A DNA stretch of 64,000 nt from Nitrospiraceae bacterium (lineage in GTDB: Bacteria; Nitrospirota; Nitrospiria; Nitrospirales; Nitrospiraceae). The notes under the pieces are model-generated. The model had not been told where the DNA came from. It did no database searches and worked only from the letters and a program-made list of their open reading frames with translations. The stretch covers positions 1-64,000 of the forward strand of contig JBBIJI010000016.1 in assembly GCA_037446055.1 (NCBI GenBank), read 5' to 3'. Positions 37,511 to 60,177 of this stretch are shown piece by piece. A program made the translations under genes and the position numbers. Within the stretch, counting starts at the first letter, position 1; the number at the start of each line of letters is the position of its first letter.

Positions 37511-37608
37511 GGCGAGAGGCAAGGGGCCCGCAAAGAAGGAAGTCAACTTAGTAGCAGAACGTGCCTAGCCCCGTGCCGCCTGCCCTCCGACAATCACAGA
37601 GGAACGAG

Positions 37609-39329: not shown

Positions 39330-39345
39330 CGGCACATGAGTTGCG
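39330..39345 (+). promoter_or_regulatory. candidate sigma-54 (-24/-12) promoter cGGCAC-N5-TTGCg
   Basis: Read directly: ggcacatgagttgc with GG-N10-GC spacing. It lies about 290 nt upstream of the multicopper oxidase start and immediately downstream of a sigma-54 activator gene. Confidence 0.5.
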
Positions 39346-42600: not shown

Positions 42601-44572
42601 CGGATTCGGCGTGACGATCGTGGAGCCCTACGGGTCGACCTATCATGATCCGAAGAACGGCAAGCTGGTCTGGAGCGGTCCGATCGCGGACATTCACAGC
42701 AGCGAGCCGATCGGCTATGGAGTCAGCGGCAGCTTCCGTGAGCTGATGGTGTCCATCCACGACACGGTGCCTCACACCGTGAACGTGATCCAGGCGGGTA
42801 ATCCGCCCGGACAGCCGGTCGAAGTGGCGCTGGAAGCCGGTAAGACGGTGTCGTTCCAGATGCCGGAAAAGATCCTCAATGCGCCGAATCAGTACATCAA
42901 CGGCGGGACGCATACGACGGGGAGCGGTCTCAACTTCAGAGCCGAACCCTTTGCGCAACGTCTCGCGAACAATCCCGATACGTCCAAGCTGTTCAGCAGC
43001 GCGATCCACGGAGATCCCGATACGCCCTTGCTTCGCGCGTATGTGGGTGACACCGTGGTGTTCCGCCTGTTGCACCAGCTCATGAACGAGTCCCACGTGT
43101 GGACGCTCTCCGGCCATACGTTCCTGACGGAACGGTTTGCGGGAGACGCCAATCGGAAGTACTCGATTCACGTCGGGATTGCCGAGCGGTATGACCTGGT
43201 GACCAAGGCCGGTGGATTCCAAGGCATGCCGGGCGACTACATCCACTTCAATGGCCGAAGCTCGCACTTCGCCGAGGGTGGGTGGGGTATCTTCCGTGTG
43301 CTGGGGAAGCACGCGGACGACCTGATGCATCTGCCGACCGGCACGAAGCCGGTGGAAATCCCGGCCGTGCCGTCGTCAGTGTGCCCGTCCGATGCTCCTG
43401 TGAAGAACTTCAACGTGGTGGCGATGGATCGCCCGATGAAGCTCAACGCGAAGGCGCCGGACGCGATCGAGGTGGACTTCGAGCGTAAGATCGAGATGAC
43501 CGTGCCTGAGGGCAAGATCTACGCACTCGAGGAGGAAGTGACCAAAGTGGCCGGCGAAGTGATGCCGAATCCGCTCACGCTGCGGGTCAACTTGGGTGAC
43601 TGCATCAAAGTAAACCTGAAGAATAAGATGAAGGCGAGCCGGGCGTCGTTCTTCGCGCCGGGCCTGGCCTTCGATCCGAAAGACAGCCTGGGCCTGAACG
43701 TCGGGAACAACCCCGGCGATCAGACGATCGCTCCAGGCGAAAGCCGGACCTACACCTACTACGCGCATCCTGCCAACAAGGAGACGACGTCGTTGGTGTG
43801 GGATGGTGGCAACATCGTGACGAATCCGCGCAATGGTCTGTACGGCGCGGTGATCGTCGGGCCTCGTGGGTCGCAGTATCGCGATCCGGTCACGGGCGCC
43901 GACATCTCGCAGAAGAACTCCTGGAGGGCTGACGTGATCGTCGATGCCAGCCTGCCGGAGAATGTCGGCAAGCGGAATTACCGGGATGTGGCCCTCTTCT
44001 TCCAGGACGAGGACAACATCATCGGAACCGCGTTCATGCCCTATGTGCAGAACGTCGCGGGGCTGACGGCGGTCAACTACCGATCGGAACCGTACAAGTT
44101 CCGCGAGGAGCAGGGGTGCTCGCTGGGCAAGATCTTCCAGCCCTGCGTCGTAGCTAAGCCGGAAGATCCGGTGACGCCGTTGATCGAGGCGCACGCCGGC
44201 GATCCGGTCCGTATCCACGTCATCGGCGCCAACAGCGAGCAAAACGGGATGTTCGGGATCGAGGGCCATGAATGGCCGATCGAGCCCTACATGCCAGGGG
44301 CCGACCAGATCAGCGTCGTGGAGTACGCCGGGTCCGAGACCCTGGATGTCTTCCTCCGCGGCGGTGCGGGCGGACCGTATCGTCAGGTGGGAGACTTCGT
44401 GTGGTCCAACACCCGGTTGCCCTACACGCAATCAGGTCAGTGGGGCTACCTCCGTGTGTTGCCGGTCGGCGACTCCCGGATTCAACCGCTCGGCGCTGCG
44501 GCAATGGGCGCCAAGCGTGCGGAGACTCTACCGGAGCCCCAGGCTATTCCGACGGCCATGAAGCAGGAATAG
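39626..44572 (+). CDS. giant multicopper oxidase-like protein (1648 aa, multiple cupredoxin domains; MofA/MnxG-class size)
   Basis: Shine-Dalgarno AAGGAGG 6 nt upstream. N-terminal RR-containing signal-like segment. Copper motifs HSHHPHSG (HxH), LFHCHVAHHYVAGMWGY (HCH...H...GM), HPHFFQFD and WHDHAFGATTWPHGGFG (HxH). Confidence 0.85.
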   Translation: MTSYFYNPKRRRCRDQAMFGLQAAVFASSLLAAPWLFAAGPGDQSHQGHATPVSMPGWTQALKGQTVVENAIEGRAGNAEKMEMQHHRLMQKLEQQAQQDARAQQTSGAFNSMSMMHQYMGQDGSSFLLMTDAAKGEPVLSTGGRCPANAPTKQYDVSMINVEITLNRWLDYYPGYMYVLTENLDKVRAEEAKNKAAREKEGFDPGAVNTGLQGDMIQPLVLRANQGDCVKMTLRNQMEGEDGSLFIQASSMIVSATGKPATTTNPDSILAPGKSQEFEWYIHPHMQEGVRQFHSYSHDRELTVLGLFGAFVIEPKGSRYLDPLGTGPAPEAKSGWQVMIDNGSGPDFREHVIFYHEVGDEAFRPLNKKGDFLPQRDPLTDAYRPGGRALNYRSEPFGIDQMHLQHEYFGFEDESMAYSAYTFGDPPTTIPRGYLGDPTKWRIVHGGSEVFHSHHPHSGSIRWIRSPRAEPQDFWAAAADGPIKYPVVRTKSDRVDVEVIGPSEALDLEAEGGAGQSQHLAGEFLFHCHVAHHYVAGMWGYGRVYNTLQVGPGHTDTMPDLRELPDRQGRIKMGVTSDKLIGTTVDWFGKQFKIVARNQKTDWKANPAVVNIKDWVEMYLPAQGKPGHTDDEKGQIMSYDATVWDWKWDGDVAKGERESTAKYPKYPAAAKWDDSTRPNILFDPTTGKMSWPLFKPHFGKRVPFSANHSGAPWLEPIHQDENGERTSEPARPGENGRWSLCPDNANTKFYNIKFIRLPITLAKKQGKEPPIVDKDGLIYVLAEEERLVRANDDLKYPLVLRANVYDCVDSILTSEWDDDDFTNFQASKINIHPHFFQFDTGNSDGVISGFEYEMSVRPYTMHEKKNKHGLPVPMNSKLVEAAKAGAKSIKIKMATGATKYHVNTELQVGADCLEPSKDTTTSLKRDASCAEVARIKEISGDTITFHKPLKHNHPVGDIVTPEFVRYRWWVDVDMGTVFWHDHAFGATTWPHGGFGVTIVEPYGSTYHDPKNGKLVWSGPIADIHSSEPIGYGVSGSFRELMVSIHDTVPHTVNVIQAGNPPGQPVEVALEAGKTVSFQMPEKILNAPNQYINGGTHTTGSGLNFRAEPFAQRLANNPDTSKLFSSAIHGDPDTPLLRAYVGDTVVFRLLHQLMNESHVWTLSGHTFLTERFAGDANRKYSIHVGIAERYDLVTKAGGFQGMPGDYIHFNGRSSHFAEGGWGIFRVLGKHADDLMHLPTGTKPVEIPAVPSSVCPSDAPVKNFNVVAMDRPMKLNAKAPDAIEVDFERKIEMTVPEGKIYALEEEVTKVAGEVMPNPLTLRVNLGDCIKVNLKNKMKASRASFFAPGLAFDPKDSLGLNVGNNPGDQTIAPGESRTYTYYAHPANKETTSLVWDGGNIVTNPRNGLYGAVIVGPRGSQYRDPVTGADISQKNSWRADVIVDASLPENVGKRNYRDVALFFQDEDNIIGTAFMPYVQNVAGLTAVNYRSEPYKFREEQGCSLGKIFQPCVVAKPEDPVTPLIEAHAGDPVRIHVIGANSEQNGMFGIEGHEWPIEPYMPGADQISVVEYAGSETLDVFLRGGAGGPYRQVGDFVWSNTRLPYTQSGQWGYLRVLPVGDSRIQPLGAAAMGAKRAETLPEPQAIPTAMKQE

Positions 44573-44650: not shown

Positions 44651-44695
44651 GGGGGGGGAGCTGCGCGCAATGTGTGGCTCCCCTGTCTTTTTTTA
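44651..44695 (+). terminator. rho-independent terminator after the multicopper oxidase gene
   Basis: Stem GGGGAGC/GCTCCCC with a 15-nt loop, followed by tgtcttttttt. Confidence 0.6.
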
Positions 44696-44713
44696 GAAGT
44701 TAGGAGTTTTTTT

Positions 44714-44790: not shown

Positions 44791-44808
44791 TTAGAAAAGG
44801 AGGCCGAA

Positions 44809-45738
44809 GTGAAACAAATCATGACAAAGGCCGTCGTCGCGGTGCTCGTAGCCGGCTGCCTCAGCGTCCCCGCCTACGCCTATGAAGAGGTGACGGTCAC
44901 CGATGGCGGGAGTATCTCCGGATCCGTCACGCTTGTAGGGGAGGTGCCGAAGCCCAAGGGGTACAACCTCACGACGCTGCCGGATGCCATCTATTGCGGA
45001 CGTATCTCTGACGGCAGGGGGTGGCGTCTGCTCCAGCCGTTCAATGTGGGTGAGCACGGAGAATTCCGCCAGGTCGTCGTGTTGCTCCAGGAAATCGAGA
45101 AGGGGAAACCGTTCGGCGCGTACAAGCCTCCTCGGATCGAGGCGCGGGATTGCCGCTTCATGCCGTTCGTGACCGTCGTTCGCGATCACCACGATGTCGT
45201 GGTCGTAAATATGGACCCGGCGATGCACGATATCCAGGCCTATGAAACCTCGCATCTGGGGCCTCGGGTCTTGTTCAACGTTCCGCTTCCCATCAGCCCG
45301 CGGTATCCCCACGAAGCCGGGCTCAGCGCGCACTTCCACAAGCATTACGAAGGCACGCCGATGAACCAAACGGTCAAGATGACCAAAGGCCGCGAGATTT
45401 TCACGATGCAGTGCGGGTTTCACGCGTACATGGAAAGCTGGGCGTTGGTCGTGGATCATCCCTACTACGCGATTACCGACCAAGACGGCCGGTTCGAGAT
45501 CGACGACATTCCGCCCGGCACATACAAGGTCACCATCTGGCATCCCTATGTGCGCGAAACGTACGAAGAGACTGTGATCATCAAGCCGAAAGAGGAGACG
45601 ACCGTCGGCTTCAAAGTCGCTGCTCCGACCGGCCGCCTTTATGCCAATCAAATGGTCGAGAACGCATACGTGCGCTACACGATTACGGAGGACGTTCAGT
45701 CCCAAATCATTCCGACGTTGGAGAAGCAGACGTTCTAG
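44809..45738 (+). CDS. secreted cupredoxin-like protein (amicyanin-type C-x2-H-x2-M site) fused to a C-terminal beta-sandwich domain (carboxypeptidase-regulatory-like)
   Basis: GTG start with AAGGAGG 5 nt upstream. Lipobox VAGC. Motifs HHDVVVVNMDP (candidate His ligand) and QCGFHAYM (Cys-x2-His-x2-Met). C-terminal motif DGRFEIDDIPPGTYKVTIWH. Paralogous to 59356-60177. Confidence 0.7.
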   Translation: MKQIMTKAVVAVLVAGCLSVPAYAYEEVTVTDGGSISGSVTLVGEVPKPKGYNLTTLPDAIYCGRISDGRGWRLLQPFNVGEHGEFRQVVVLLQEIEKGKPFGAYKPPRIEARDCRFMPFVTVVRDHHDVVVVNMDPAMHDIQAYETSHLGPRVLFNVPLPISPRYPHEAGLSAHFHKHYEGTPMNQTVKMTKGREIFTMQCGFHAYMESWALVVDHPYYAITDQDGRFEIDDIPPGTYKVTIWHPYVRETYEETVIIKPKEETTVGFKVAAPTGRLYANQMVENAYVRYTITEDVQSQIIPTLEKQTF

Positions 45739-45746
45739 TGGGCAAT

Positions 45747-45822
45747 AGTCATTCGTCATTAGTCATTGGCGGGGGTCATCGAATTCTTTCACCAATGACC
45801 ATTGACCCTTGACCAGTGACGA
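45747..45822. repeat. family-2 palindromic repeat element (GTCATTNGTCATT / CCAATGACCATTGAC units)
   Basis: Read directly: agtcattcgtcattagtcattgg ... caccaatgaccattgacccttgaccagtgacg. Confidence 0.65.
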
Positions 45823-45837
45823 AAAGGCACAAGAGGC

Positions 45838-46746
45838 GTGGCAGGACCGACACTACATGCCGGATTTGTAAGCCTGATGGCATGGAGCCTACTGTCCGCC
45901 GTCGCGCAGGCCGATCACCTCACGCCGAAACATGACCCCTGGGCGCAGCCCTGGGAGCTGGAGCGGTTGGCGTTGCTGGAGGTTCCCGATGACATGGTGT
46001 TCGTGCCGGCAGGATCGTTCTTGATGGGCAGCGATCCTCGGGTGGATCGCGCGGCTGGGCCGCAGGAACAACCGCAGCGATCGGTCGTGCTCGATGCTTT
46101 TGCCATCGACCGGTACGAGGTCACGAACGTTCACTATCTCCGGTTCGTGTTGGCCACAGGGGCCACGTGGCCGCCGTATTGGACGCAGGATCCCTTCCCG
46201 GAGAAGCAGTCGCGGCACCCGGTCATTGGGGTGAGTTGGGAGGAAGCGGATCGCTACTGCCGGTGGGTGGGGAAGCGTCTTCCGACCGAGGCGGAATGGG
46301 AAAAGGCGGCGCGAGGGGGCGATGGTCGCATCTTCCCCTGGGGCGACGAGCCGGCGGGGTGGATCAAGAGCAACATCGCCCATCCGGGGTCCAAACGAGG
46401 CGTGAAGTATCCCCCGTTGGCGAACGTCGACCGGTATGAGCGCGGCGTCAGCCCTTACGGGGTCTACCAGATGGCGGGCAACGTGAGCGAATGGGTCGCC
46501 GATTGGTTTGATCCTGAATATTACCGGAAAGGAGTCAACGAGAACCCGAGAGGGCCGGCCGACGGCGAAGACAAGGTCTTCAGGGGAGGGTCGTGGAACG
46601 AGGACCCGGAGGTGGCGCGATCGGCCGGGCGGAATGCGGCAGCGCCGGACCACAGGAGTTATCTGATCGGGTTCCGGTGCGCGAGATCAGTCATAAACGT
46701 CAATGGTCAATTGTCAATGGTCAACGGAGGCGGACAAAGTCATTAG
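45838..46746 (+). CDS. FGE-sulfatase fold protein, single-Cys PvdO/NirV-like subfamily, secreted (copy 1); C-terminal 19 aa encoded by family-2 repeat
   Basis: GTG start. Signal peptide ends in AQA. Motifs RGGSWNEDP and GFRCARS. The tail VINVNGQLSMVNGGGQSH is translated from the repeat gtcataaacgtcaatggtcaattgtcaatggtcaac. Confidence 0.8.
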   Translation: MAGPTLHAGFVSLMAWSLLSAVAQADHLTPKHDPWAQPWELERLALLEVPDDMVFVPAGSFLMGSDPRVDRAAGPQEQPQRSVVLDAFAIDRYEVTNVHYLRFVLATGATWPPYWTQDPFPEKQSRHPVIGVSWEEADRYCRWVGKRLPTEAEWEKAARGGDGRIFPWGDEPAGWIKSNIAHPGSKRGVKYPPLANVDRYERGVSPYGVYQMAGNVSEWVADWFDPEYYRKGVNENPRGPADGEDKVFRGGSWNEDPEVARSAGRNAAAPDHRSYLIGFRCARSVINVNGQLSMVNGGGQSH

Positions 46747-46852
46747 TCATCGGTCATTGGCGAAAAGTCTCTCTTGCCACCCAATGACCGTTGACCAATG
46801 ACATCTTCTGCTCCAGTGACCAATGACGATTGACCGTCGACCAATGACCGAA
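46689..46852. repeat. family-2 palindromic repeat element (long copy, about 160 nt)
   Basis: Read directly: reiterated tgaccaatgac/gtcattggtca units on opposing arms. It overlaps the 3' end of the preceding CDS. Confidence 0.65.
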
Positions 46853-46868
46853 ACAAGGAGGCCGAGTA

Positions 46869-47852
46869 ATGGAAGCGAAGAATATGGGTGCGTATAGGAA
46901 GCTTGAGTGGGTCATCAACGCGTTGCTGATCGCGGCAGCGATCCTCGCGCTGGTGAAGGTCGCGTGGGGACTCGATACGCAGGATATCACGGTCGAGTGG
47001 ACCGCTGAAGGGAAGAAGATCGCCGCGCAACGGGTGGCCGACTGGCCGGTCAAGGAGGAGATGGTCCTGGTCCCTGCCGGCGAATTTCTCATGGGCAGCG
47101 ACAAGAAAGTGGATCGCTTGGCGTATCGCTCCGAGATGCCGCAGCGCAGCGTGTATCTCGATGCATTCGAGATCGACAAATACGAAGTGACCGCGCTGCA
47201 GTACCTCAAGTTTGTGCTGGCCGCGAACCGGCCACCACAGCTCGACTGGCGATATGACGGCGGCAACTTCCAGGAAACCATGGCGCATCACCCGATCATG
47301 CACGTGAGCTGGTACGACGCGGACGCCTATTGTAAGTGGGCCGGGAAGCGCCTCCCGACCGAAGCCGAGTGGGAGAAGGCGGCGCGCGGGACGGATGGTC
47401 GGATCAATCCGTGGGGCAACCAGACGGCAGGATTGAGCCGGGCGAACTTCGGCCGCTCGGGACTGTCCGGGCCGGTTCGCGACCGGCCCGAACGGCTGCT
47501 GCTGTATCCGCCGATCATCTCGGTCGACAAATATGAGAACGCCGTGAGTCCCTACGGCATCCATCAGATGATCGGCAACGTGGCTGAATGGGTGGCGGAC
47601 TGGTACCAACCCGATTATTACGCGACGGCTCCGAGCCGCAATCCGAAGGGGCCGGAAACAGGAACGCAAAAAGCCTTCCGCGGCGGCGGCTGGATCGACA
47701 GCACCACCACGATGCGGGCGGCGATGCGGAATGGGACCGACCCCAACACGAAGATGAATTGGCTGGGCTTCCGGTGCGCGCGCGACGCGCAGAATGATCG
47801 GGCCCTATCTGAGTCGCCGCAGGTACGGGTCTCGCGGGCGAGTGGGGAATAA
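46869..47852 (+). CDS. FGE-sulfatase fold protein, single-Cys PvdO/NirV-like subfamily, secreted (copy 2)
   Basis: Strong Shine-Dalgarno AAGGAGG. Signal/TM segment. Motifs MVLVPAGEFLMGSD, RGGGWIDSTT and GFRCARD. Confidence 0.85.
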   Translation: MEAKNMGAYRKLEWVINALLIAAAILALVKVAWGLDTQDITVEWTAEGKKIAAQRVADWPVKEEMVLVPAGEFLMGSDKKVDRLAYRSEMPQRSVYLDAFEIDKYEVTALQYLKFVLAANRPPQLDWRYDGGNFQETMAHHPIMHVSWYDADAYCKWAGKRLPTEAEWEKAARGTDGRINPWGNQTAGLSRANFGRSGLSGPVRDRPERLLLYPPIISVDKYENAVSPYGIHQMIGNVAEWVADWYQPDYYATAPSRNPKGPETGTQKAFRGGGWIDSTTTMRAAMRNGTDPNTKMNWLGFRCARDAQNDRALSESPQVRVSRASGE

Positions 47853-47875
47853 GATTCTCGCTTGGGAGAGGGCGG

Positions 47876-48406
47876 GTGAACCTGGTCGTCCATATCCCGG
47901 AAACGTCGGTCGAAGCGACGCCCTATGTGCAGACACTCATGAAACGGGCGCCGAGCTTCACGATCGAAGGGCAAGACTGGATCGCGATTTTCCCGCAATT
48001 GCCCGATGCCATCGATCTGGCGCTCCAGATCGTGGGTGAAAGCGTCCGCGTTCCGGACGCCTGGGCGAGCATGAACGGACGGCAGATCTCGAGCCTCCTG
48101 CGGCTGTGGGCGAGGCTGGAGTGTTACCGCGAGAGCCTCGATGCGCCGAGCCCTGAAGAGCACTGCCTTCGCAAGGCGGGCAAACACAATCTTCTGGAGG
48201 GCTGCTCGGGCCCGACCTGTCCCGTGTCTTGCCAATTTGTGTGCATGCCATGCCGCGCGGAGATTCAGAGTAGCGGTGTACCGCCCGTCGAAGGGCACCT
48301 CTCGCGCCTCGCAGTCACCGCCGAGGTGGAGTGGTGCCCCAATCTTCGCCTGCCCGAAAACCGGCGAGTAGCGAATAGAGAACAGCGAACAGCGAGCAGA
48401 GAATAG
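47876..48406 (+). CDS. hypothetical protein with Cys-rich C-terminal region (CSGPTCPVSCQFVCMPC); 3' end runs into family-3 repeat
   Basis: GTG-start ORF immediately after FGE copy 2. Seven Cys in 25 residues. The last 14 codons are repeat-derived. Confidence 0.35.
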   Translation: MNLVVHIPETSVEATPYVQTLMKRAPSFTIEGQDWIAIFPQLPDAIDLALQIVGESVRVPDAWASMNGRQISSLLRLWARLECYRESLDAPSPEEHCLRKAGKHNLLEGCSGPTCPVSCQFVCMPCRAEIQSSGVPPVEGHLSRLAVTAEVEWCPNLRLPENRRVANREQRTASRE

Positions 48407-48510
48407 CCATGGAAAAGCTGATAGCGAGTAGCTGATGGCCAATAGCGAGCAACTCCGAGCATCCTGCTCCTGCTGTTTTCTATTCGCTACCAGCTATTCG
48501 CTGTTCGCTG
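48364..48510. repeat. family-3 palindromic repeat element (AGCGAATAG / GAACAGCGA units versus CTATTCGCT / TCGCTGTTC)
   Basis: Read directly: gagtagcgaatagagaacagcgaacagcgagcagagaatagcc ... ctattcgctaccagctattcgctgttcgctg. Confidence 0.7.
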
Positions 48511-48672
48511 TCCCCATCATAGGCCGAATGGCCTATTCCCCTGCCTGACAAGAATCACATTGGATGCCGGAGGCAGTCAAGGCGCCTCTGCGAAAGATTG
48601 CGTAGGCTTGCGGCGCGTGTGGGCTGTCTCGATACATCGACAATTCGACACATCTTACAAAGGAGGAGCGTG

Positions 48673-49365
48673 ATGAAGAGATACGATCAGAGAGTGAGGG
48701 CCACGAGCCTGATCATCATGGTCTTGCTGGCTCTCGGGACCATGTTTGCGCCCTGGTCGGCCTGGGCGGAGGAGACCGGCAATATGGTGGTGTTCAAGGG
48801 CGGGTTCATGAATCTGAGCGAGGACCGCGGCAGGCAGATTTTTACCGACACGAATGGCCTCACGGGAGTCAACGGAGGCAACGCCGGGTGGTATGTCGGA
48901 GCGTGGTTGGACTTGGGCCTTTCCAAAGATGCCTGGGGTCTGATGAAGGGAATCACAGGGATAGGAGAAATCGGTTTGCAGTTCAACCGGATCAATTCAG
49001 CGAGAGTGAATAACACCGCTGGGAGCGTGGCTGCCCATACTGTCACCGGTATTACCGCAGTCGATCCTCAGGTGGTCCAACTCACCATGGTGACCATCGA
49101 CGTGGCGCCGAAGCTGAAGTTTATGGAGGGCAACGCGTTTCGGCCCTGGATCATTCCTGTTGGGTTGGACATCCACGTGATCAGCCCCCCCTCGAATCGA
49201 ACGCAATATCTCGACGTCGGCGTGCAATTCGGCGCGGGGTTTGAATATGCAGTCTGGAAGGCCTTCAAGGTTGGAGCGGATGCCCGTTACCACTTGACGG
49301 CTAACATGACCAACACGAACAACTCTTACTTCCAGGTCGGGCCGTACGTCGGGATTACGTTCTGA
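48673..49365 (+). CDS. outer-membrane beta-barrel protein (OmpW/porin-like)
   Basis: Shine-Dalgarno AAAGGAGG. Signal peptide ends in AWA-EE. Alternating amphipathic strands. C-terminal Phe (GITF). Confidence 0.65.
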   Translation: MKRYDQRVRATSLIIMVLLALGTMFAPWSAWAEETGNMVVFKGGFMNLSEDRGRQIFTDTNGLTGVNGGNAGWYVGAWLDLGLSKDAWGLMKGITGIGEIGLQFNRINSARVNNTAGSVAAHTVTGITAVDPQVVQLTMVTIDVAPKLKFMEGNAFRPWIIPVGLDIHVISPPSNRTQYLDVGVQFGAGFEYAVWKAFKVGADARYHLTANMTNTNNSYFQVGPYVGITF

Positions 49366-49371
49366 TGGTAA

Positions 49372-49515
49372 GAAGCGAATAGCTGGTAGCAGGTAGCGGA
49401 TTGCTCTCGAACAGAAGCGAATAGCTGATAGCGAATAGCGGGTAGCTCTGAACTTCTTGCTGCAAGCTGTTCGCTACTTGCTATTCGCTATTCGGAGCTG
49501 CTCGCTACTTGCTCA
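49372..49515. repeat. family-3 palindromic repeat element, followed by a 14-bp perfect hairpin (CAACGGACAAGGTGG / CCACCTTGTCCGTT at 49543-49585)
   Basis: Read directly. Confidence 0.7.
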
Positions 49516-49732
49516 GAAAAGGGGAAGGAGCCTTGCCCAGCTCAACGGACAAGGTGGGGGCGTTCCTCCTGCCACCTTGTCCGTTCCCCGTTTGGCCCTC
49601 AAGTGAAGGGCCAATAGTGCAGAGCGGGATCTCCGGTATCGAGTTATATTTCTTGGGGATAGATTCCTGAGTGGTCTGCTCTGAACCCCGAACTCAATTC
49701 ATAATTCATCATTCATAATTCAGAATTGTTTC

Positions 49733-50839
49733 ATGCACCCCCCTCCACGCCTCGTCTACTGGGAAACCACGAAGCGCTGCAATTTACGCTGCGCGCACTG
49801 CCGTGCAATTCCGCAAACGCAGTCGTCTCCGGACGAGCTGTCGTTGGCCGAAGGCTTCAGACTCATCGACGCGATCGCCGAAGTGGGGCAACCCATTCTC
49901 GTGCTCACCGGCGGTGAGCCGCTGCTCCGGCGCGATCTCTTCGACTTAGCGACCTATGGCGCGTGGCGAGGGCTGCGAATGGCTCTGGCCACCAACGGGA
50001 CGCTTGTCAACCGCGACATGGCCAAACATGTCGTCGAGGCCGGATTCAAGCGAGTGTCGATCAGTCTCGACGGGCCGGACGCCGAGACGCATGACCGATT
50101 CCGCCGGGTACCGGGCGCGTTTGATCAAGCGGTGGATGGATTCATTCATCTGAAGGAGCTCGGCATGTCGATGCAGGTGAATACCACCGTCACCCTGCAG
50201 AACCGGGAACGACTTGAAGAGATCTATGAGTTGGTGCGGAAGCTCGGCGCCGACGCCTGGCATCTATTTTTGCTCGTCCCGGTCGGGTGCGGGCTGGAGA
50301 TCATGCGGACCGCCCAGCTCACTCCACGGGATTATGAAGAAGTGTTGTATTGGATCGACGAACTCGCTCAAACCGAGACGATGGAAATCCGCGCAACTTG
50401 CGCGCCGCACGCGCAGAGGATTCGGCTCCAGCGGCAGGCGATTGTTGAAGCCGGCGTTGATTCCCAGTCCGGTGATCGAACGGGTCGAGTTTCTAACTCA
50501 GAACTCAGAACTCAAGACTCAGAACTCCGAGCTTCCCGTCGCGGCTGCCTGGCCGGAACGGGCATTTGCTTTGTGTCTTATCGCGGGGAGGTCTTTCCAT
50601 GCGGCTACCTCCCGGTGTCAGCCGGGAACGTGCGCCAGCAATCCTTCAAATCTATCTGGGAGGAGGCGTCCGTTTTCGAGGAATTGCGTGATCCGAACTT
50701 GCTGCTGGGGAAGTGCGGAGTGTGCGAATATCGAATCGTCTGCGGCGGCTGCCGCGCGCGGGCCTTCGGGCAGACGGGCATTTATCTCTACGAAGAACCG
50801 TTCTGCAATTATCTTCCTGGCTCGGCGAGGACTGAATAG
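49733..50839 (+). CDS. radical SAM protein with C-terminal SPASM/twitch domain (anSME/NirJ/PqqE-like maturase); carries an in-frame repeat-derived 13-15 aa insertion
   Basis: Radical SAM motif CNLRCAHC. C-terminal motifs GCLAGTGICFVSYRGEVFPCG and CGVCEYRIVCGGCRARAF. The insertion VSNSELRTQDSELRAS is encoded by aactcagaactcagaactcaagactcagaactccgagc (50495-50532). No Shine-Dalgarno at the first ATG, so the start is uncertain. Confidence 0.8.
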   Translation: MHPPPRLVYWETTKRCNLRCAHCRAIPQTQSSPDELSLAEGFRLIDAIAEVGQPILVLTGGEPLLRRDLFDLATYGAWRGLRMALATNGTLVNRDMAKHVVEAGFKRVSISLDGPDAETHDRFRRVPGAFDQAVDGFIHLKELGMSMQVNTTVTLQNRERLEEIYELVRKLGADAWHLFLLVPVGCGLEIMRTAQLTPRDYEEVLYWIDELAQTETMEIRATCAPHAQRIRLQRQAIVEAGVDSQSGDRTGRVSNSELRTQDSELRASRRGCLAGTGICFVSYRGEVFPCGYLPVSAGNVRQQSFKSIWEEASVFEELRDPNLLLGKCGVCEYRIVCGGCRARAFGQTGIYLYEEPFCNYLPGSARTE

Positions 50840-50882
50840 CGAGCAGCGAACAGAGAATAGCGAGCAGCGAACAGCGGGCAGC
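50834..50882. repeat. family-3 repeat element (tgaatagcgagcagcgaacagagaatagcgagcagcgaacagcgggcagc); short partner arm gagctattcgctagttcag at 50968-50986
   Basis: Read directly. It overlaps the radical SAM stop codon. Confidence 0.65.
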
Positions 50883-51083
50883 TTTATGACGCCCTTTCCT
50901 TGTCCTTCCCCCGGGGACCCGTTGCTCCCCAAGATGCAGCGGGTGATGGGGAGGGAAGGGTGGGGGTGAGCTATTCGCTAGTTCAGATGAAAATAGTGCC
51001 CGGGACGGGGACAGGCACGCCGCTGCGGCGAGCCGGTCCCCTTCGAGCAAGATCGAGGGTCGAGCGACGGACGGGCGAGGGGC

Positions 51084-51902
51084 TTACGCGGCATTTCGAT
51101 ACAGGTAATCGGCGCCCACCGGTAAATGACCCAGCCATTGGAAGAAACGAGTCACTTCTTCACCGCGGAAAATGGAGCCATGTTGGGGGAGCATGGCGGT
51201 AATCCGGTACCCGGCCAGCTTCTTGATCATCCCGGCGACGGCCCGGTTACAGGACATGTACCGTTGGTGGAATCCCTGCATGGCTCTGATATGCGCGTCC
51301 CAGTTGTCGATGATGAGGTGGAAGGCATTGTCTTTATAGACAGACGCCCCGACATCGCCGGTAAATAAGAATCCGCTCTCCGAATCGAATAGCAGAATAT
51401 TCCCGGGTGAATGGAGATACGGCGCGGAAATGCACTCGAGGCGCCCTCCGCTCTTCAGCGTGATCGTCGCTCCTTCGTCGCCCACCGGGATATAGTTCAA
51501 CCTATAACTCTTCCCCGTGACATCCCGTGACTCGTAATGCGGCATGAACCGCTGCCACAGAGAGGAAATTACCAACTGGATGTTTTCGTTCCACTTCACC
51601 CAGCTCGGGAATGACGCGCAGATGTCGGGGTCTTGGTGGCTGAAATAGAGGTGCGAGACGGCGCTCGGTGACATCAGGTAACAGACCTTCTTGAATACCG
51701 GGGGGAAGCGGTCGAAGCCGCCGGGTTCCAGTAGGTAGCCTGCTCCTTCATCAATAATCAGATACGAGTTGCACTCGATTTCCTCTCCGGTGGAGTGAGC
51801 GCCGACCCAATAGATCTTGTGCGAGTCACCGTCATAGAGAAGGATGGGTTGGTCGGGGTCAACTGGCGAGTTCTTGAGTTCAAGCAATGGAAGCTTGGGC
51901 AT
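51084..51902 (-). CDS. MBL-fold protein, flavodiiron/ODP-like diiron domain without flavodoxin module
   Basis: Motifs HSTGEEIECNSYLIIDEGAGYLLEPGG, FSHQDPD and ITAMLPQHGSIFRG resemble the N-terminal beta-lactamase-like domain of flavodiiron and oxygen-binding diiron proteins. Confidence 0.6.
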   Translation of the reverse strand: MPKLPLLELKNSPVDPDQPILLYDGDSHKIYWVGAHSTGEEIECNSYLIIDEGAGYLLEPGGFDRFPPVFKKVCYLMSPSAVSHLYFSHQDPDICASFPSWVKWNENIQLVISSLWQRFMPHYESRDVTGKSYRLNYIPVGDEGATITLKSGGRLECISAPYLHSPGNILLFDSESGFLFTGDVGASVYKDNAFHLIIDNWDAHIRAMQGFHQRYMSCNRAVAGMIKKLAGYRITAMLPQHGSIFRGEEVTRFFQWLGHLPVGADYLYRNAA

Positions 51903-52181
51903 GCGAACACCTCCTCATGATTGGTAATGGGGTTATGCCCGGCCTCCAGACGGCATCTTAGGCGAAGCACGCCGCGATGCAAAGCCAATTCACCTTTTGA
52001 ACTTCGGCAGACGCCGGAGATCGATCCCCGAGCAACTCCGAGTAACAGGCGTGGGCAGCGAATGTATGGCGCGAACGGCAGGCAGCGAATAGCGAGGACG
52101 ATTTGGTGAAGCATGATTCGGTGATCCGGTGGAGTAATGTGCGAAACTTCGCCAGATCACCAAATCACCAATTCATACTTT

Positions 52182-52967
52182 TCACGGTCCGAGGTCTCGG
52201 GCGCACCGGAAGCCGAGGTCAAAAAACGTGCTCGCCGGTCCGAAGTAGTTTCGGTTGGTCGAGCGCAGGTCATAGAGCATGTTGTACCAAGAGCCTCCGC
52301 GCGCGACCTTGCTTCCGCCGCGAGCGGGCCCCGTCGGATTCCGATCGGGACTGCTCTTGTAGTAATTCACGTCGTACCAATCTGCGACCCACTCCCAGGT
52401 ATTGCCCGCCAGCTCATAGATCCCGTACGGGCTCTTCCCCGGCTCTAGACTTCCCACAGGCAACAGCGTCTCATACCCGATCCACGTCGCGCCGAAGTTC
52501 GCGCGGAGACGCGTCGGCTCCTCGTTCCCCCATGGGAACCTTCGTCCGTCGGTGCCCCGCGCGGCTTTCTCCCACTCGGCTTCGGTCGGGAGACGTTTCC
52601 CATAGTGGCGGCAGTAGGCATCGGCGTCATGCCAGGTGACGCCGACGACCGGACGACTGCCGTCGGTGACATGGTTCACATCCTTCCACTTCGACGGCGG
52701 CTCGCGACCGGTCTCTTGCATGAATCGACCGTATTGGGCAGTCGTCACCTCGAACTTATCCATATAGAACGCATCGAGGGAGACTCGATGGACAGGTTTC
52801 TCATCCGCCTCCCACCCTTCACTGCCCATCGTGAATTCTCCGGCTGGAACGAGAACCATCGGGGCGCCGTCCTTTCCGGTGATCTCGGGTGATCGTTCCT
52901 GAGCAAGGGCAAGTGCCGTCCACGAAATGACTGTTGCGAGGAGCGCGGTGAAGATTGAGAGTCGCAT
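52182..52967 (-). CDS. FGE-sulfatase fold protein, single-Cys PvdO/NirV-like subfamily, secreted (copy 3)
   Basis: Motifs MVLVPAGEFTMGSE, WHDADAYCRHYGKRLPTEAEWEKAARG, RGGSWYN and GFRCARDLGP. Start trimmed to MRLSIFTALL (signal peptide). Confidence 0.8.
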   Translation of the reverse strand: MRLSIFTALLATVISWTALALAQERSPEITGKDGAPMVLVPAGEFTMGSEGWEADEKPVHRVSLDAFYMDKFEVTTAQYGRFMQETGREPPSKWKDVNHVTDGSRPVVGVTWHDADAYCRHYGKRLPTEAEWEKAARGTDGRRFPWGNEEPTRLRANFGATWIGYETLLPVGSLEPGKSPYGIYELAGNTWEWVADWYDVNYYKSSPDRNPTGPARGGSKVARGGSWYNMLYDLRSTNRNYFGPASTFFDLGFRCARDLGP

Positions 52968-53440
52968 GGGCGGCGCCGTGCGTCGACTCAAACGATATAG
53001 CGAGGTCGCGGGCGATACGCCCTCAATAAGCTTGGCCATGCAAATCGAACGCCGAAGGGTATTCATTTGGCATCCCTTCTGGGCCACCAGAAGTTCGACA
53101 GCTCATCGAGCAAGGTCGATTGCCTCGATGCGCTCGGAAACGGTGAACCATACATCATTCTCCGTTGAGGCTCTCTCGACGAACGCTTCATACTTACTTA
53201 ACACCGCCCATTCTCTACAGCCCCGCCAGCGAAGGATCTCAGCGATAGGGAGCTTAACATTCGGTCCGCCCAGCCTTCTGTGGCATTGTGCAGCAGCTCA
53301 ATGAGGGTGTTTGTAGCTCTTTGACCCAGAGACGTACTGCATCCGCGCGGCAAGTCCCGTGGAATATCTTTCAACACGCATGAATAGTTAGCTCATTCCT
53401 CGGCTTGCTCGTGATTACAGGTGACGAAGAGGTGTAGTCC

Positions 53441-54214
53441 TTGCAACCCAGGTTTCTTGAGTACGCGCTTGCAAAGTCTTGCGCAAGTCCACGAGGCAGG
53501 GGAGTGAGACCCAAGCATTGCCTCATTGAAGGCTGCGACAGTTGCGGTTTACGTAGCAAGGCTGTGCTGTGCAACCTCACCGGAGAAGATCTCGCCGGCT
53601 TCGAGAAAATCAAGCGCTCCCTGATGTACGAACCTCAGCAGACGGTCTTCTACGAGGGCCATGCCTGCCTGGGCTTGTACTTGCTCTGTGCCGGCAAGGT
53701 CAAGCTTACCCGCTCTTCGGTCCGCGGCCAGCGACAGATCGTGCGCATCCTAGAGAGCGGCGAACTGATCGAGAAGCACGCGTTTCGGGCCAAGGCCATC
53801 CACGAAGTCACCTGTGAGACCCTGGAACCATCCCAGATCTGCCTGATCGAAAAGGAGCCCTACATGGCGCTCATCCAGCGCAACCCTGGGCTGGCCTTGA
53901 GCGTGATCCAACTCCTAAGCAGTGAACTGGGCATGAATATGGACCAGCTCGACCAGTTCACCTTCAAGACCGCGCGCGAGCGCCTGGCGGGACTGCTCGT
54001 GGAACTGGGCGAACGATTCGGCAAGAAGGCGGACGGCGGGCTTCTCGTGGGAATCACGCTCAAACGCGAGGAGGTGGCTGAAATGGCGGGCATCACCGTC
54101 GAAACGGCCATTCGGCTCCTCAGCGCCTTTCGGGACGAAGGACTCGTCAACATAGACGGACGAGCGATCACCCTCCTCAAGCCGGATCGCCTGGCCCGCA
54201 TCGCACGGCACTAA
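53441..54214 (+). CDS. Crp/Fnr family transcriptional regulator with N-terminal Cys cluster
   Basis: cNMP-binding fold (FYEGHACLGLYLLCAGKVKL). C-terminal HTH (REEVAEMAGITVETAIRLLS). N-terminal CLIEGCDSCG...C cluster reminiscent of FNR. Start uncertain (TTG in the ORF track). Confidence 0.75.
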   Translation: MQPRFLEYALAKSCASPRGRGVRPKHCLIEGCDSCGLRSKAVLCNLTGEDLAGFEKIKRSLMYEPQQTVFYEGHACLGLYLLCAGKVKLTRSSVRGQRQIVRILESGELIEKHAFRAKAIHEVTCETLEPSQICLIEKEPYMALIQRNPGLALSVIQLLSSELGMNMDQLDQFTFKTARERLAGLLVELGERFGKKADGGLLVGITLKREEVAEMAGITVETAIRLLSAFRDEGLVNIDGRAITLLKPDRLARIARH

Positions 54215-54216
54215 TC

Positions 54217-54412
54217 TGATAGCGAATAGCGAACAGCCAGCAGCTAACAGCAAATAGCGAGCAGCGAATAGCTCCGAGCGGCGCCTCTTTCAGCAGAATC
54301 CCCCTTTCTTCCCTGTCTTGCCCGGCTTATACCACCTAACTCTTAGCTGTTCCTAGCATTTAGCTACTCGCTATTCGCTGACTTTCGGCTACGCGCCACC
54401 TGCTGCTCGCTG
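54217..54412. repeat. family-3 palindromic repeat element (arms 54217-54275 and 54343-54412)
   Basis: Read directly: gatagcgaatagcgaacagccagcagctaacagcaaatagcgagcagcgaatagc ... tagctactcgctattcgctg. Confidence 0.65.
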
Positions 54413-54577
54413 ATCCCGAGCTATAGGTCCAAAGACCCATTCCTAGGCTTTGAGAAGAATCATAAGCCGGACCGGCTAACCACAGTGTTGGCTTACCTCG
54501 TTTTCTTTACTGTGGGCGTCGAAAAAGAAGGGTGCGGGCCGAACGCATGACGATGGCTCCCTCCACAGAGCCGGCCA

Positions 54578-55105
54578 ATGATGAGGCGATCACGGCGCAC
54601 ACGTAAGGAAGCAGCAGTGGACCCCGTGGCCCTTCTGAAACGGGAACACGAGATGATCCTGGAACAGTTGCACATGATCGAGGCCACGATCGGACCGAAG
54701 AGCAAGAAAGGAGCTGCGCTGTTGGAGCCGGGTCGAAGCACGCTCTGCGAACTGTTCCGTTTTTTCACCGGACGAGTGGACGTGCACTACAAGCGGGAAG
54801 CGACGCTGATTTCCGCGCTCAGTCGCGTTGTTGGGCGTAAGAACGGAGAACGCGAACAATTCGAGGGCTTGCTCTGTGAGCATCGCGCACTGAAAGCGGA
54901 TGCGGCGAGCATTATGAAGCGACTTTCGAAACACACTGCAACCCCGTCCGTTGCCGACGGCGCCGATCGGTTGGGAATTCGGTCGTTCGTGAAGCGCTTC
55001 CGCAGTCATATTGCATGCGAGGAGCGCATTCTCTACGTGCTGGCCGGCATGCGACTGAACGCCGAGCAAAAACAGCGCGTCGGTCATCGCATGTTGCAGG
55101 TCTGA
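54578..55105 (+). CDS. hemerythrin-like (HHE cation-binding) domain protein
   Basis: Motifs LLKREHEMILEQL, HYKREATLI and ACEERILYV give the H...HxxxE...H...HxxxxD-type spacing of hemerythrin-like metal sites. The 5' end is probably shorter than the ORF track shows. Confidence 0.6.
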   Translation: MMRRSRRTRKEAAVDPVALLKREHEMILEQLHMIEATIGPKSKKGAALLEPGRSTLCELFRFFTGRVDVHYKREATLISALSRVVGRKNGEREQFEGLLCEHRALKADAASIMKRLSKHTATPSVADGADRLGIRSFVKRFRSHIACEERILYVLAGMRLNAEQKQRVGHRMLQV

Positions 55106-55109
55106 CAAT

Positions 55110-55290: not shown

Positions 55291-56499
55291 ATGATCATGA
55301 GAAGGACAAGAGGAATGGTCGTCGCGATGATGGCGCTCACCCTCTGCGCGTTTGCGGCGGGTGTCGCGTTTGCGGCCGACCCAGAAGTCAAGACGCACAA
55401 GCAACCCTATCCGGACCGATGGAACTCGATCAAAAACCCGCCGGTGAGCAAGTTCGGTTATCCACCTGATATCTGGGCCGCCGAGAACATGTCGTTCCGG
55501 GCGACCGGCAAGATCGTCGAATACTACCTGACGATCGAGCAGATCAAGTGGAACATCGTCGGCGACGTGTACGTGACGCAGTGGGCGTTCAACGGGCAGG
55601 TGCCCGGACCGCTCCTGACGGCGACCGAGGGCGACATCGTCCGCATTACGGTCAAGAACAACACGACCATTGACCACACCATTCACCCGCACGGGTTCTG
55701 GGTGCCGGTCAATATGGACGGCGTGCCGAACATCACCCAGTTGTCGATCCAACCGGGCGAGACGTTCGTGTATGAGTTCATGGCGAAGCCCTCAGGGCAC
55801 CATTTCTATCACTGCCACGTGAACGCGGCGACGCACATGGACATGGGACTCTATGGGTCCTTCGTCGTGTATCCGCCGGCTGAAGCGGCGAACGGGACGA
55901 ATGCGAACCAGGTGGCCGATCCTGCAGCCAGAATCGACCGGGACTACGTGATGATCCTGGACGAGGTGGACACGCGGATCGACGACGGCGAGAGCGGAGG
56001 CATGGAACTCGGCCATCCGAGGAAGATCGCCAACTTCAACTACTTCACGATCAACGGCAAATCCTTTCCCGAGACGCCGATGATCTTCGTGCGGGAAGGC
56101 GACATCGTGCGGGTCCGATTCCTGAATTTCGGTTACTGGTCCCATGCGATGCACCTGCACGGCCATGCGTTTGCGCAAGCCAGTGCCGAGTGCGATCGCT
56201 GTCCGAAATACTGGGAGTTCAGGGACGCGATGAACCTGAACGCCGCGCAACGAACCGACATCGTCTTTAAGGCCAACAATCCCGGCCGGTGGGTGTTCCA
56301 CTGCCACCGGGTGCCCCACGCGACGAATGACGGAGCCTATCCGGGCGGACTCCTGACGATCATCGAGTACGAGAACAACCCGTACCTGCCGGTGATTCCG
56401 CAGTTGCCGTTGCCGGGGTTCAAGCACATGGACGATCCGAAGACCATGAACATGTCGCTGTCGCATAAGGCGATCAAGAAGCAGCTCGCGGGCGAATAG
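55291..56499 (+). CDS. two-domain multicopper oxidase (secreted)
   Basis: Shine-Dalgarno GAGAGGAGGA. Signal peptide ends in AFA-AD. Domain 1 motifs HTIHPHG and HHFYHCHVNAATHMDMG. Domain 2 motifs MHLHGHAF and WVFHCHRVPHATNDG. No NirK-specific signatures. Confidence 0.8.
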   Translation: MIMRRTRGMVVAMMALTLCAFAAGVAFAADPEVKTHKQPYPDRWNSIKNPPVSKFGYPPDIWAAENMSFRATGKIVEYYLTIEQIKWNIVGDVYVTQWAFNGQVPGPLLTATEGDIVRITVKNNTTIDHTIHPHGFWVPVNMDGVPNITQLSIQPGETFVYEFMAKPSGHHFYHCHVNAATHMDMGLYGSFVVYPPAEAANGTNANQVADPAARIDRDYVMILDEVDTRIDDGESGGMELGHPRKIANFNYFTINGKSFPETPMIFVREGDIVRVRFLNFGYWSHAMHLHGHAFAQASAECDRCPKYWEFRDAMNLNAAQRTDIVFKANNPGRWVFHCHRVPHATNDGAYPGGLLTIIEYENNPYLPVIPQLPLPGFKHMDDPKTMNMSLSHKAIKKQLAGE

Positions 56500-59355: not shown

Positions 59356-60177
59356 ATGAACAAGTGGGGACTGATCGGCGTATGTGGGATAGCGACAGCA
59401 GCCTGGCTTTCCGCCGGGGTGGCAGAGAGTTTTGCTGCCGGGACCATAAGCGGGACAGTGACATTCGCGGGTAATGCGCCTGCGAACCCGAAAATTCGCA
59501 TCGCGAAGAACGCGGACTATTGCGGGACCGAGATCGAATTACCGGTCCTGGTGGTGAATCCGAAGAACAAGGGCGTCCAGTGGACGGTCGTCTATCTGGA
59601 AGGCGCCACCGGCGGGCCGACGCAGGAGAAATATGATTTGGAGATGGGCGATCCCAAGAAGAAGTGCGACTTCGTGCAGCATGTCGTCGCGATGGTCAAG
59701 AACAAAAACATTTCAATGAAGAACACCGATCCGATTCTGCACAATCCGCACACCTTCAACGATAAACACGCAACGCAGTTCAACGTCGCGCTCTCGGAAA
59801 AGGGTCAGGTGATTGAGCGGAAGTTGCGCGCGGGCGGACTCAATAAACTCCAATGCGACTCCCATGTGCATATGAACGGCTATGTGTATACGTTCGACCA
59901 TGGGTATTTTGCCGTCACCGACGGGGATGGCAACTTCAAGATCGGCGATGTTCCTCCGGGCAAGTACAAGGTCGTTGCCTGGCACGAGAGCTGGAAAGCG
60001 AAGAACATGGAGGATGTGACTCGCTCGATCAAGGAAGCGGAAGAGAAGATCAAAGCAGGCCATATCAAGCCGGAAGATGCCCAACTTGAGCGTCCGAACT
60101 ACGAAGACCACATCGTGCTGACCAAGGAGATCGAGGTGAAAGACGGCGAGGTCAAGGTCGCGTTTGAACTGAAATAA
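59356..60177 (+). CDS. secreted cupredoxin-like protein (C-x2-H-x2-M site) with C-terminal beta-sandwich domain; paralogue of 44809-45738
   Basis: Shine-Dalgarno TAAGGAGGG. Signal peptide ends in AAG-TI. Motifs QCDSHVHM and DGNFKIGDVPPGKYKVVAWH. Shares the N-terminal TxSGxVT motif with the paralogue. Confidence 0.7.
   Translation: MNKWGLIGVCGIATAAWLSAGVAESFAAGTISGTVTFAGNAPANPKIRIAKNADYCGTEIELPVLVVNPKNKGVQWTVVYLEGATGGPTQEKYDLEMGDPKKKCDFVQHVVAMVKNKNISMKNTDPILHNPHTFNDKHATQFNVALSEKGQVIERKLRAGGLNKLQCDSHVHMNGYVYTFDHGYFAVTDGDGNFKIGDVPPGKYKVVAWHESWKAKNMEDVTRSIKEAEEKIKAGHIKPEDAQLERPNYEDHIVLTKEIEVKDGEVKVAFELK

Follow-up and report, generated by a model that had tools for sequence, protein, structure and literature searches.

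The occurrence of a Cys-less protein with the fold of the formylglycine-generating enzyme (FGE) beside an extracytoplasmic oxidase is a theme already known from NirV, which accompanies the copper nitrite reductase NirK, and from PvdO. The nirV gene is an FGE-domain gene placed 3' of nirK in alpha- and beta-proteobacteria and has no assigned function. The large multicopper oxidase (MCO) MnxG of Bacillus has two accessory proteins, MnxE and MnxF. Genes similar to mnxG are also present in Nitrospira, which dominate nitrite oxidation in soils, wastewater plants and drinking-water filters. A manganese oxidase function was recently suggested for these genes, but the suggestion offered no starting point for functional work. 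The stretch analysed here (the window, 64,000 nucleotides, positions 1 to 64,000 of contig JBBIJI010000016.1 in GenBank assembly GCA_037446055.1, from a Nitrospiraceae bacterium) encodes three FGE-fold proteins, named FGE1, FGE2 and FGE3, the first two of them downstream of an MnxG-type MCO. The genome comparison given below defines a unit specific to Nitrospira, whose conserved part ends with FGE1 and FGE2 and which is made up of one or more sigma54 enhancer-binding proteins (EBPs), a -24/-12 element, the MnxG-type MCO, a cupredoxin-like protein (p309), FGE1, FGE2 and sometimes an outer-membrane barrel. No published description of FGE-fold genes linked to MnxG-type oxidases was found in the literature. 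All coordinates refer to the whole window and to the forward strand unless marked (-).

FGE1 (45838..46746), FGE2 (46869..47852) and FGE3 (52182..52967 (-), the longest open reading frame (ORF) reaching 53087) give full-domain matches to the Pfam family PF03781 (FGE-sulfatase) with E values of 7e-62, 1e-59 and 9e-59, respectively. Their pairwise identity is 43-52%, FGE1 and FGE2 being 52% identical. The proteins are 261-327 aa long and consist of a signal-like segment and the FGE domain only, and the three have in common the tail RGG[SG]W...GFRCAR. The hydrophobic, signal-like N-terminus present in each of them is followed in FGE1 (...AVAQA/DH) and FGE3 (...ALALA/QE) by AxA-type cleavage motifs resembling those of ordinary Sec signals, while in FGE2 it may be a signal anchor. 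All three are thus predicted to be exported, FGE2 possibly remaining membrane-anchored. The initial annotation of this DNA had recognised the three paralogues, their signal peptides and their shared tail, all of which are confirmed here with this reservation for FGE2.

The same annotation also stated that one Cys of the catalytic pair of FGE had been retained, which turned out to be wrong. The catalytic residues C336 and C341 of human FGE correspond to E255 and A260 in FGE1 (HMMER alignment), and to D/M in FGE2 and N/L in FGE3 (manual register on the GG[SG]W motif). Each protein contains two Cys and no more (C141/C281 in FGE1, C155/C303 in FGE2 and C119/C255 in FGE3), and each of these pairs aligns to the structural disulfide C218/C365 of human FGE (YCxW...GFRCA). 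By this alignment the Cys of the GFRCAR tail occupies a structural position and not a catalytic one. Moreover, the motif GGxxxCxxxxC was found in none of 120 FGE1 orthologues and in none of the 177 FGE-like ORFs of the compared, mostly Nitrospira, loci. The chemistry of FGE rests on a bis-thiolate Cu(I) site (PMC12123546; bioRxiv 10.1101/2021.05.21.445229). As both Cu(I)-binding Cys are replaced, FGE1, FGE2 and FGE3 cannot be FGEs and the formylglycine reaction is ruled out. The absence of a sulfatase, rightly pointed out in the initial annotation, consequently calls for no explanation; no PF00884 domain was detected among the window ORFs of at least 400 aa, and the sulfatase motif CxPxR...TG had no in-gene match, the six-frame regular-expression search giving three out-of-gene chance matches.

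FGE domains devoid of the catalytic pair are common: when a library of 1.8 billion proteins was searched with FGE1, the 150 closest cluster representatives contained 295 FGE domains, of which only 13 keep CxxxxC. The top of that list for FGE1 is composed mostly of giant multi-FGE-domain proteins and is of little value for phylogeny. What replaces the Cys loop is well preserved: where the active site used to be, 113 of the 120 FGE1 orthologues have the loop RGGSWNEDPEVARSAGR[NG], and its equivalent in FGE2 is RGGGW[MIV]DST[TP][TS][MV]R. The near invariance of these paralogue-specific loops indicates selection. The AlphaFold2 (AF2) model of FGE1 (pLDDT 82.5) has true FGEs as its top Foldseek matches, with E values of ~1e-20 and 33-35% identity.

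True FGEs are also the nearest solved relatives of the FGE-fold proteins by sequence (129 bits, ~34% identity), and PvdO, pFGE, EgtB and PorK are more distant than true FGEs both by sequence and by structure. The PvdO model (NF051459) gave 98.7, 70.7 and 86.7 bits for the three proteins against an equivalog cut-off of 500. Similarly, the scores were 110-124 bits for the NCBIfam EgtB model (cut-off 360), 107-118 bits for SenA (cut-off 420) and 104-127 bits for GldK/PorK (cut-off 350). The EgtB, OvoA and SenA models were matched over their C-terminal part only, and the window proteins have no N-terminal DinB-like domain, the part with which the FGE domain builds the non-heme iron active site of EgtB, OvoA and SenA. 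Neither type IX secretion system (T9SS) genes of the gld and por kinds nor pyoverdine (pvd-like) or nonribosomal peptide synthetase (NRPS) genes were found nearby, the neighbours being genes for MCO, cupredoxin-like, regulatory, outer-membrane and radical S-adenosylmethionine (SAM) proteins.

As a reference for NirV the gene located right after nirK on the Sinorhizobium meliloti plasmid pSymA was used. Its product is 30-32% identical to the FGE-fold proteins over 162-174 aa (34-43 bits), and its C-terminal third, including the RGGSW...GFRCAR signature, fails to align. The identification of the window proteins as NirV was rejected, the S. meliloti protein being a remote relative only. An Ensifer plasmid match, considered as a possible nirV, was likewise rejected; it sits among ABC-transporter-like ORFs. 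In a crude neighbour-joining tree with NirV set as outgroup, FGE1 and FGE2 formed sister clades with a third Nitrospira clade beside them, FGE3 fell into a separate broad clade of environmental relatives, and human FGE was placed inside the same radiation as the three proteins and their relatives, whereas NirV joined by a very long branch. On these sequence comparisons FGE1, FGE2 and FGE3 branch from that section of the superfamily which contains the true FGEs, have lost the catalytic Cys, and are members of neither the PvdO nor the NirV family. The sister paralogues FGE1 and FGE2 are specific to Nitrospira, all FGE1 homologues at 67-88% identity coming from Nitrospira or Nitrospiraceae records. 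The initial annotation had regarded the proteins as PvdO/NirV-like non-FGE members of the fold. They are indeed non-FGE members, but the affiliation to PvdO or NirV does not hold, and in the phylogeny they share the radiation of human FGE, yet without its catalytic Cys.

The likeness to FGE itself (SUMF1; human, Streptomyces coelicolor and Thermomonospora curvata) thus comprises the fold, the C218/C365 pair and the motifs RLPTEAEWE, PWG, GN.xEW and RGGS[WY]; the Nitrospira proteins differ in the loss of C336/C341, in their predicted export to the periplasm and in having no sulfatase in the window. They share with pFGE (SUMF2) and Tsi3 the condition of Cys-less FGE-fold proteins that are not FGEs, and pFGE is among their PDB matches (76 bits). 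Tsi3, an FGE-like immunity protein of a type VI secretion system (T6SS), acts through binding of a partner protein (bioRxiv 10.1101/2021.05.21.445229). Nevertheless pFGE and Tsi3 belong to other clades and contexts, no T6SS is present here, and for the Nitrospira proteins partner binding is only presumed.

The association of FGE1 and FGE2 with the oxidase was followed across Nitrospira using one genome per species and the alignment of the large oxidase as query. The best 80 of at least 500 matches, all from Nitrospira, were retained and fall into orthologues of the window gene (group A, 79-91% identity) and paralogues (group B, 67-70% identity). The denominator of each fraction given here is the number of loci whose flanking DNA is long enough to show the feature concerned. 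For the FGE-fold genes these are the loci with at least 3.6 kb downstream in group A, genes being counted within 5 kb. At least one FGE gene is present in 29 of 33 group-A loci but in only 2 of 19 group-B loci, and two such genes in 22/33 and 1/19, respectively; orthologues of FGE2 (71-88% identity) follow FGE1 in 22 of the 33 loci. A p309 gene lies 3' of the oxidase in both groups (36/42 in group A; 25/27 in group B, often in 2-3 copies). Of 43 group-A loci, 28 encode a sigma54 activator no more than 2.5 kb 5' of the MCO, as against none of 16 group-B loci. The same gene order was observed in N. moscoviensis, N. defluvii and an N. tepida-type genome, with p309 and FGE1 overlapping by 4 bp in N. 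moscoviensis and separated by 26 bp in the N. tepida-type locus. The recurrent pairing with copper enzymes suggested by the initial annotation is therefore borne out, FGE genes following the MnxG-type MCO and p309 in most group-A loci, as is the co-occurrence with large MCOs in other genomes, which hardly extends to group B. A gene for a small outer-membrane beta-barrel protein (48598..49365; Pfam OMP_b-brl, 5e-5, below the cut-off) is a frequent and not constant member; it is found downstream in 11 of those 26 group-A loci whose sequence continues for 7 kb or more beyond the oxidase.

The oxidase of the window (bigMCO, 39626..44572) has 1648 aa and belongs to the MnxG-type, six-domain class. 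It matches MnxG (PDB 9bxa) with an E value of 1e-84 over five stretches and is 91% identical to a 'putative manganese oxidase' of N. tepida. Together with the FGE1 homologues, this match assigns the window to a Nitrospira genome. Its copper motifs HSHHPH, HCHVAHH, HPH and WHDH are invariant in 12 orthologues. Mn(II) as substrate is an annotation-level guess; mnxG genes have merely been noted in Nitrospira, and homology does not predict function (bioRxiv 10.1101/2024.12.25.630300). Some Nitrospira genomes contain two or three MnxG-type paralogues with ~85%, ~68% and ~52% identity to bigMCO, sometimes in tandem (among loci L007-L086, for example L017, L021, L029, L031, L042 and L065, and L051, L067 and L082 of the metagenome-assembled genome (MAG) SMAG_U13307). 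Many MAG contigs stop within a few hundred bases of MnxG genes, a sign that assembly may be interrupted by the paralogues.

The 309-aa product of the next gene, p309 (44809..45738), has a lipobox (LVAGC) and a CarboxypepD_reg-like fold (Pfam) with an inserted cupredoxin-like domain. In this domain H140 and C202-x2-H205-x2-M208 are invariant in 45 sequences, including p273 (59356..60177), a 31%-identical paralogue encoded in the same window. This second p309-type protein was found by BLASTP (28% identity, E value 8e-21) and keeps the H / C-x2-H-x2-M residues, its Pfam CarboxypepD_reg match being below the cut-off. Foldseek, run with an AF2 model of p309 that reaches only a moderate pLDDT of 69, gave the cupredoxin-like structures 4hci and 4hcf as best matches (E value 1e-3). 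Taken together, the residues and the model indicate that p309 probably carries a type-1 copper site. Proteins of this family are exported, have ~300 aa and are annotated merely as 'carboxypeptidase regulatory-like'; in Nitrospira they are found beside MnxG-type paralogues, often as 2-3 tandem copies.

With respect to regulation, a sigma54 EBP (37561..39003; Pfam Sigma54_activat 1e-71, HTH_8) is encoded directly 5' of the large MCO, and the gap between both genes contains the candidate sigma54 -24/-12 promoter element CGGCACATGAGTTGC (39330..39344), with one mismatch to TGGCAC-N5-TTGC. An element of the form YGGCAY-N5-TTGC is located within ~500 bp, mostly 180-290 bp, 5' of the MCO start in ~30 of ~50 group-A loci, and it was not found 5' of the group-B paralogues except for two downstream tandem copies. 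Further upstream lie an NtrC-type response regulator/sigma54 EBP (33494..34897; Pfam Response_reg, Sigma54_activat and HTH_8) and a PAS-domain sensor histidine kinase (34936..36840; Pfam PAS/PAS_9, HisKA and HATPase_c). A second EBP 5' of the proximal one is present in many related loci, and the loci of N. moscoviensis and of the N. tepida-type genome likewise have a PAS histidine kinase gene of this type upstream. Sigma54/IHF-type promoter sites have been predicted for mnxG and mcoA of Pseudomonas putida (bioRxiv 10.1101/2024.09.19.613919), and the EBP and -24/-12 element of Nitrospira parallel this sigma54-type control of mnxG.

From this evidence we propose, with moderate confidence, that FGE1 and FGE2 are non-catalytic accessory proteins of an extracytoplasmic MnxG-like oxidase encoded in an apparently sigma54-driven unit. 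The sigma54 activator would drive the unit through the -24/-12 element, MCO, p309, FGE1 and FGE2 would constitute one expression unit, and their four products would all be extracytoplasmic. FGE1 and FGE2 could then be subunits, scaffolds, or assembly or stabilising factors of the oxidase/p309 system, and the peptide-binding groove of the FGE fold might serve as a protein-binding surface. The closest functional comparisons would be MnxE and MnxF for the MnxG of Bacillus, or the partner-binding Cys-less proteins pFGE and Tsi3. The unit is a third independent case, after NirV and PvdO, of an FGE-fold gene beside an extracytoplasmic oxidase, which strengthens the idea that the fold has been recruited repeatedly as an accessory of periplasmic oxidases. 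As in NirV, the gene is adjacent to one for a periplasmic copper enzyme, the partner in Nitrospira being an MnxG-type MCO. Moreover, the conserved four-gene unit, apparently sigma54-dependent, gives a concrete handle on the role of the mnxG genes of Nitrospira.

Several observations weigh against this proposal. FGE genes are missing from 4 of the 33 group-A loci, and the group-B oxidases keep p309-type genes yet mostly have no FGE gene. In addition, an MnxG-like gene of Streptomyces, obtained in a plasmid search, has CopC/YcnI neighbours and no FGE gene. FGE-fold partners are therefore no general requirement of MnxG-type oxidases. In N. moscoviensis a frameshift divides the FGE2 gene into two ORFs and is present both in the reference CP011801 (L002, 11000-11981) and in an independent read-archive assembly (L003, 5798-6779), which suggests that FGE2 is dispensable there. 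A strong intrinsic-terminator-like hairpin with a 14-bp stem and a T-run lies just 3' of the MCO stop codon (44654..44684) and repeat hairpins occupy the intergenic gaps, so that co-transcription with the MCO is not assured. The conserved acidic loop NEDPEV of FGE1 is equally compatible with a catalytic or a metal-binding function. Finally, the evidence on interaction of FGE1 and FGE2 with the oxidase, on their co-expression and on any activity is indirect throughout.

The loop just mentioned also bears on another explanation, namely that the FGE-fold proteins are PvdO-like periplasmic oxidoreductases which, jointly with the MCO, would oxidise some peptide or small molecule. As summarised in a preprint citing Ringel 2018 (bioRxiv 10.1101/2021.05.21.445229), PvdO is a Cys-less FGE-fold protein that is required for an oxidation step and relies on a conserved Glu. 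PvdO thus resembles the Nitrospira proteins (78 bits, Foldseek E value 1e-14) as a periplasmic Cys-less FGE fold needed for an extracytoplasmic oxidation, and it works beside other periplasmic maturation enzymes in pyoverdine synthesis. The acidic loop that FGE1 invariably has in place of the FGE active site, and the strong conservation of the orthologues, can be explained in the same way. However, the scores of the window proteins, 99 bits at best, are far below the cut-off of the PvdO model, the gene context holds none of the biosynthetic genes searched for, and the candidate catalytic residues are not common to the three paralogues. Moreover, the in vitro activity of PvdO itself has never been demonstrated. 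We consider this explanation a serious alternative that is nevertheless rather doubtful.

A bolder version of our proposal is that the cluster encodes a hitherto unrecognised multi-subunit extracytoplasmic metal oxidase, for Mn(II) or another metal, in which the FGE-fold proteins are obligatory subunits replacing MnxE and MnxF. As in the Bacillus Mnx complex, a large MnxG homologue is encoded together with small accessory genes, but the accessories in Nitrospira are the cupredoxin-like p309 and the FGE-fold proteins and not MnxE/MnxF. If it were true, it would represent a new use of the FGE fold and would equip the nitrite oxidisers that prevail in soils and water filters with a defined gene module for oxidising metals; at present it must be considered unlikely.

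A role of FGE1 and FGE2, and perhaps FGE3, as periplasmic metallochaperones that bring copper or the metal substrate to the MnxG-like oxidase or to p309 also deserves consideration, copper-binding accessory factors having been the alternative offered in the initial annotation. Their association with copper proteins is constant, copper-handling CopD/DUF4149 genes recur downstream in other Nitrospira loci, and the site of true FGE binds Cu(I). The FGE1-specific acidic loop NEDPEV is invariant. In addition, the mature N-terminus of FGE1 (residues 23-27, after the predicted AxA site) starts with Asp-His in at least 90% of the orthologues, and such an X-His terminus could, speculatively, bind Cu(II). 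On the other hand, the Cys pair that binds Cu(I) is precisely what was lost, and the residues in its place differ from one paralogue to another (E/A, D/M, N/L). No Met-, His- or Cys-rich motif is common to the three paralogues, acidic ligands fit hard ions such as Ca2+ and Mn2+ better than Cu(I), and the group-B oxidases manage without FGE-fold proteins. A metallochaperone function is for these reasons distinctly unlikely.

FGE3 is located outside the MnxG operon, between the gene for an ODP-family diiron protein with a metallo-beta-lactamase fold (51084..51902 (-); Pfam ODP 3e-63) and a divergent gene for a Crp/Fnr-family regulator (53441..54214; Pfam cNMP_binding and HTH_Crp_2). These are followed by a hemerythrin-domain protein (54578..55105; Pfam Hemerythrin 3e-12), a 402-aa two-domain MCO (55291..56499), two tandem cupredoxin genes (58010-58408 and 58405-58791; Pfam Copper-bind / Cupredoxin_1) and p273. 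The small MCO together with the Crp/Fnr regulator, the hemerythrin and the ODP-type diiron protein resembles an O2/NO-sensing neighbourhood. This setting, the divergent regulator and the distance of 2.3 kb to the small copper oxidase could indicate that FGE3 assists a copper nitrite reductase in the manner of NirV, both being controlled by the Crp/Fnr-family protein. Nevertheless a NirK-like identity does not hold for the 402-aa protein, which is a two-domain MCO and not NirK: its best PDB matches are 3g5w from Nitrosomonas europaea (E value 1e-52) and 2zwn (6e-52), and it attains only 88 of the 296 bits required by the NirK model TIGR02376. Nor did the part of the window examined for it, 24-64 kb, contain a nirK. 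Furthermore FGE3 is on the opposite strand and not 3' of the copper oxidase, the gap between FGE3 and the crp-type gene contains no FNR/CRP-type box, and S. meliloti NirV is 32% identical to FGE3 over 174 aa, with the C-terminal signature unaligned. The closest relatives of FGE3 in metagenomes (at most 63% identity) have none of these neighbours in common, and the metagenome scan of relatives found no conserved context for FGE3. A NirV-type function is consequently very unlikely, and FGE3 is treated here as a periplasmic Cys-less FGE-fold protein of an independent type, which from its sequence relatives is the more widespread one; its location in an island of copper- and O2/NO-related genes would be incidental.

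The initial annotation had also suggested a system in which the FGE-fold proteins, together with a radical SAM/SPASM enzyme, would introduce or process a modification, formylglycine-like or other, on a secreted copper protein. The radical SAM/SPASM gene is indeed present (49733..50839), 1.9 kb 3' of FGE2 and on the same strand, and SPASM enzymes include peptide and protein maturases. Its full-length scores in NCBIfam, however, are highest with the heme b synthase AhbD (TIGR04545; 425 bits, cut-off 500), TIGR04053 (373 bits, cut-off 395) and NirJ2 (308 bits), in the first two cases just under the curated cut-offs, whereas the solved anaerobic sulfatase-maturating enzyme (anSME; 4k36/4k37) gives only 29 bits. 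The protein has no signal peptide by sequence and would be cytoplasmic, while the FGE-fold proteins are predicted to be exported and have no catalytic Cys. The gene occurs in 4 of the 26 related loci, in each case after the barrel gene, and is absent from the closest relative compared and from the N. moscoviensis, N. defluvii and N. tepida-type loci, and therefore it is not a partner. By its scores the protein is an AhbD/NirJ-like enzyme and a variable neighbour outside the core, adjacent in a minority of genomes; as a partner of the FGE-fold proteins it was rejected on family scores and synteny. The postulated modification of the copper proteins, for which family scores, synteny and the loss of Cys give no support, is largely refuted by synteny and highly improbable, and the idea of a radical SAM and FGE modification system can be dropped. 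What remains is a well-conserved and apparently undescribed Nitrospira operon.

Lastly, that the proteins are genuine FGEs with sulfatase substrates encoded elsewhere in the genome, as the full-length Pfam FGE-sulfatase match and the true FGEs among the nearest solved structures might suggest, is practically negligible given that both catalytic Cys are missing from each of the three proteins and, without exception, from the orthologues examined, and that no sulfatase was detected among the window ORFs of at least 400 aa.

Regarding the other features of the region, FGE2 is followed by the gene for p176 (47876..48406), a 176-aa protein and variable cluster member with eight Cys, which are grouped towards the C-terminus, in the second half of the protein (CSGPTCPVSCQFVCMPC). 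A signal peptide is absent, and neither Pfam nor NCBIfam gave a match for p176; weak orthologues (33-48% identity) are encoded 3' of FGE2 in several Nitrospira loci. The radical SAM protein contains, in the linker between its core and the SPASM domain (50495-50531, residues ~245-268), in-frame 7-nt AACTCAG repeats translated into the peptide NSELRTQDSELR. A similar repeat peptide, SDSALSTQHSAL, is present in its orthologue at locus L039, and the linkers of other orthologues are unrelated. Between the small MCO and the cupredoxin genes two tandem, near-identical small secreted ORFs of 108 and 110 aa (56577-56903 and 57040-57372) share the core DRVVHSGNVTKI.KDSGAVEIELRNGG, without a convincing Pfam family. 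An ORF with a DpnII/MboI-type restriction endonuclease domain (30370-31617 (-); Pfam 2e-44) was found between regulator genes 5' of the oxidase cluster.

Nearly all intergenic gaps of the region contain tandem 7-nt units (e.g. AGCGAAT/AGCGAAC, AGTCATT, GAGTTAT) followed by their inverted complement (44707-44798, 45747-45821, 46698-46848, 48362-48510, 49371-49513, 50823-50885, 52071-52096, 54199-54416 and 55097-55204). These elements are long imperfect palindromes in which the letters of the unit vary from gap to gap while the 7-nt period and the hairpin layout are constant. They may be elements similar to repetitive extragenic palindromic (REP) sequences, terminators or mRNA-stability elements.

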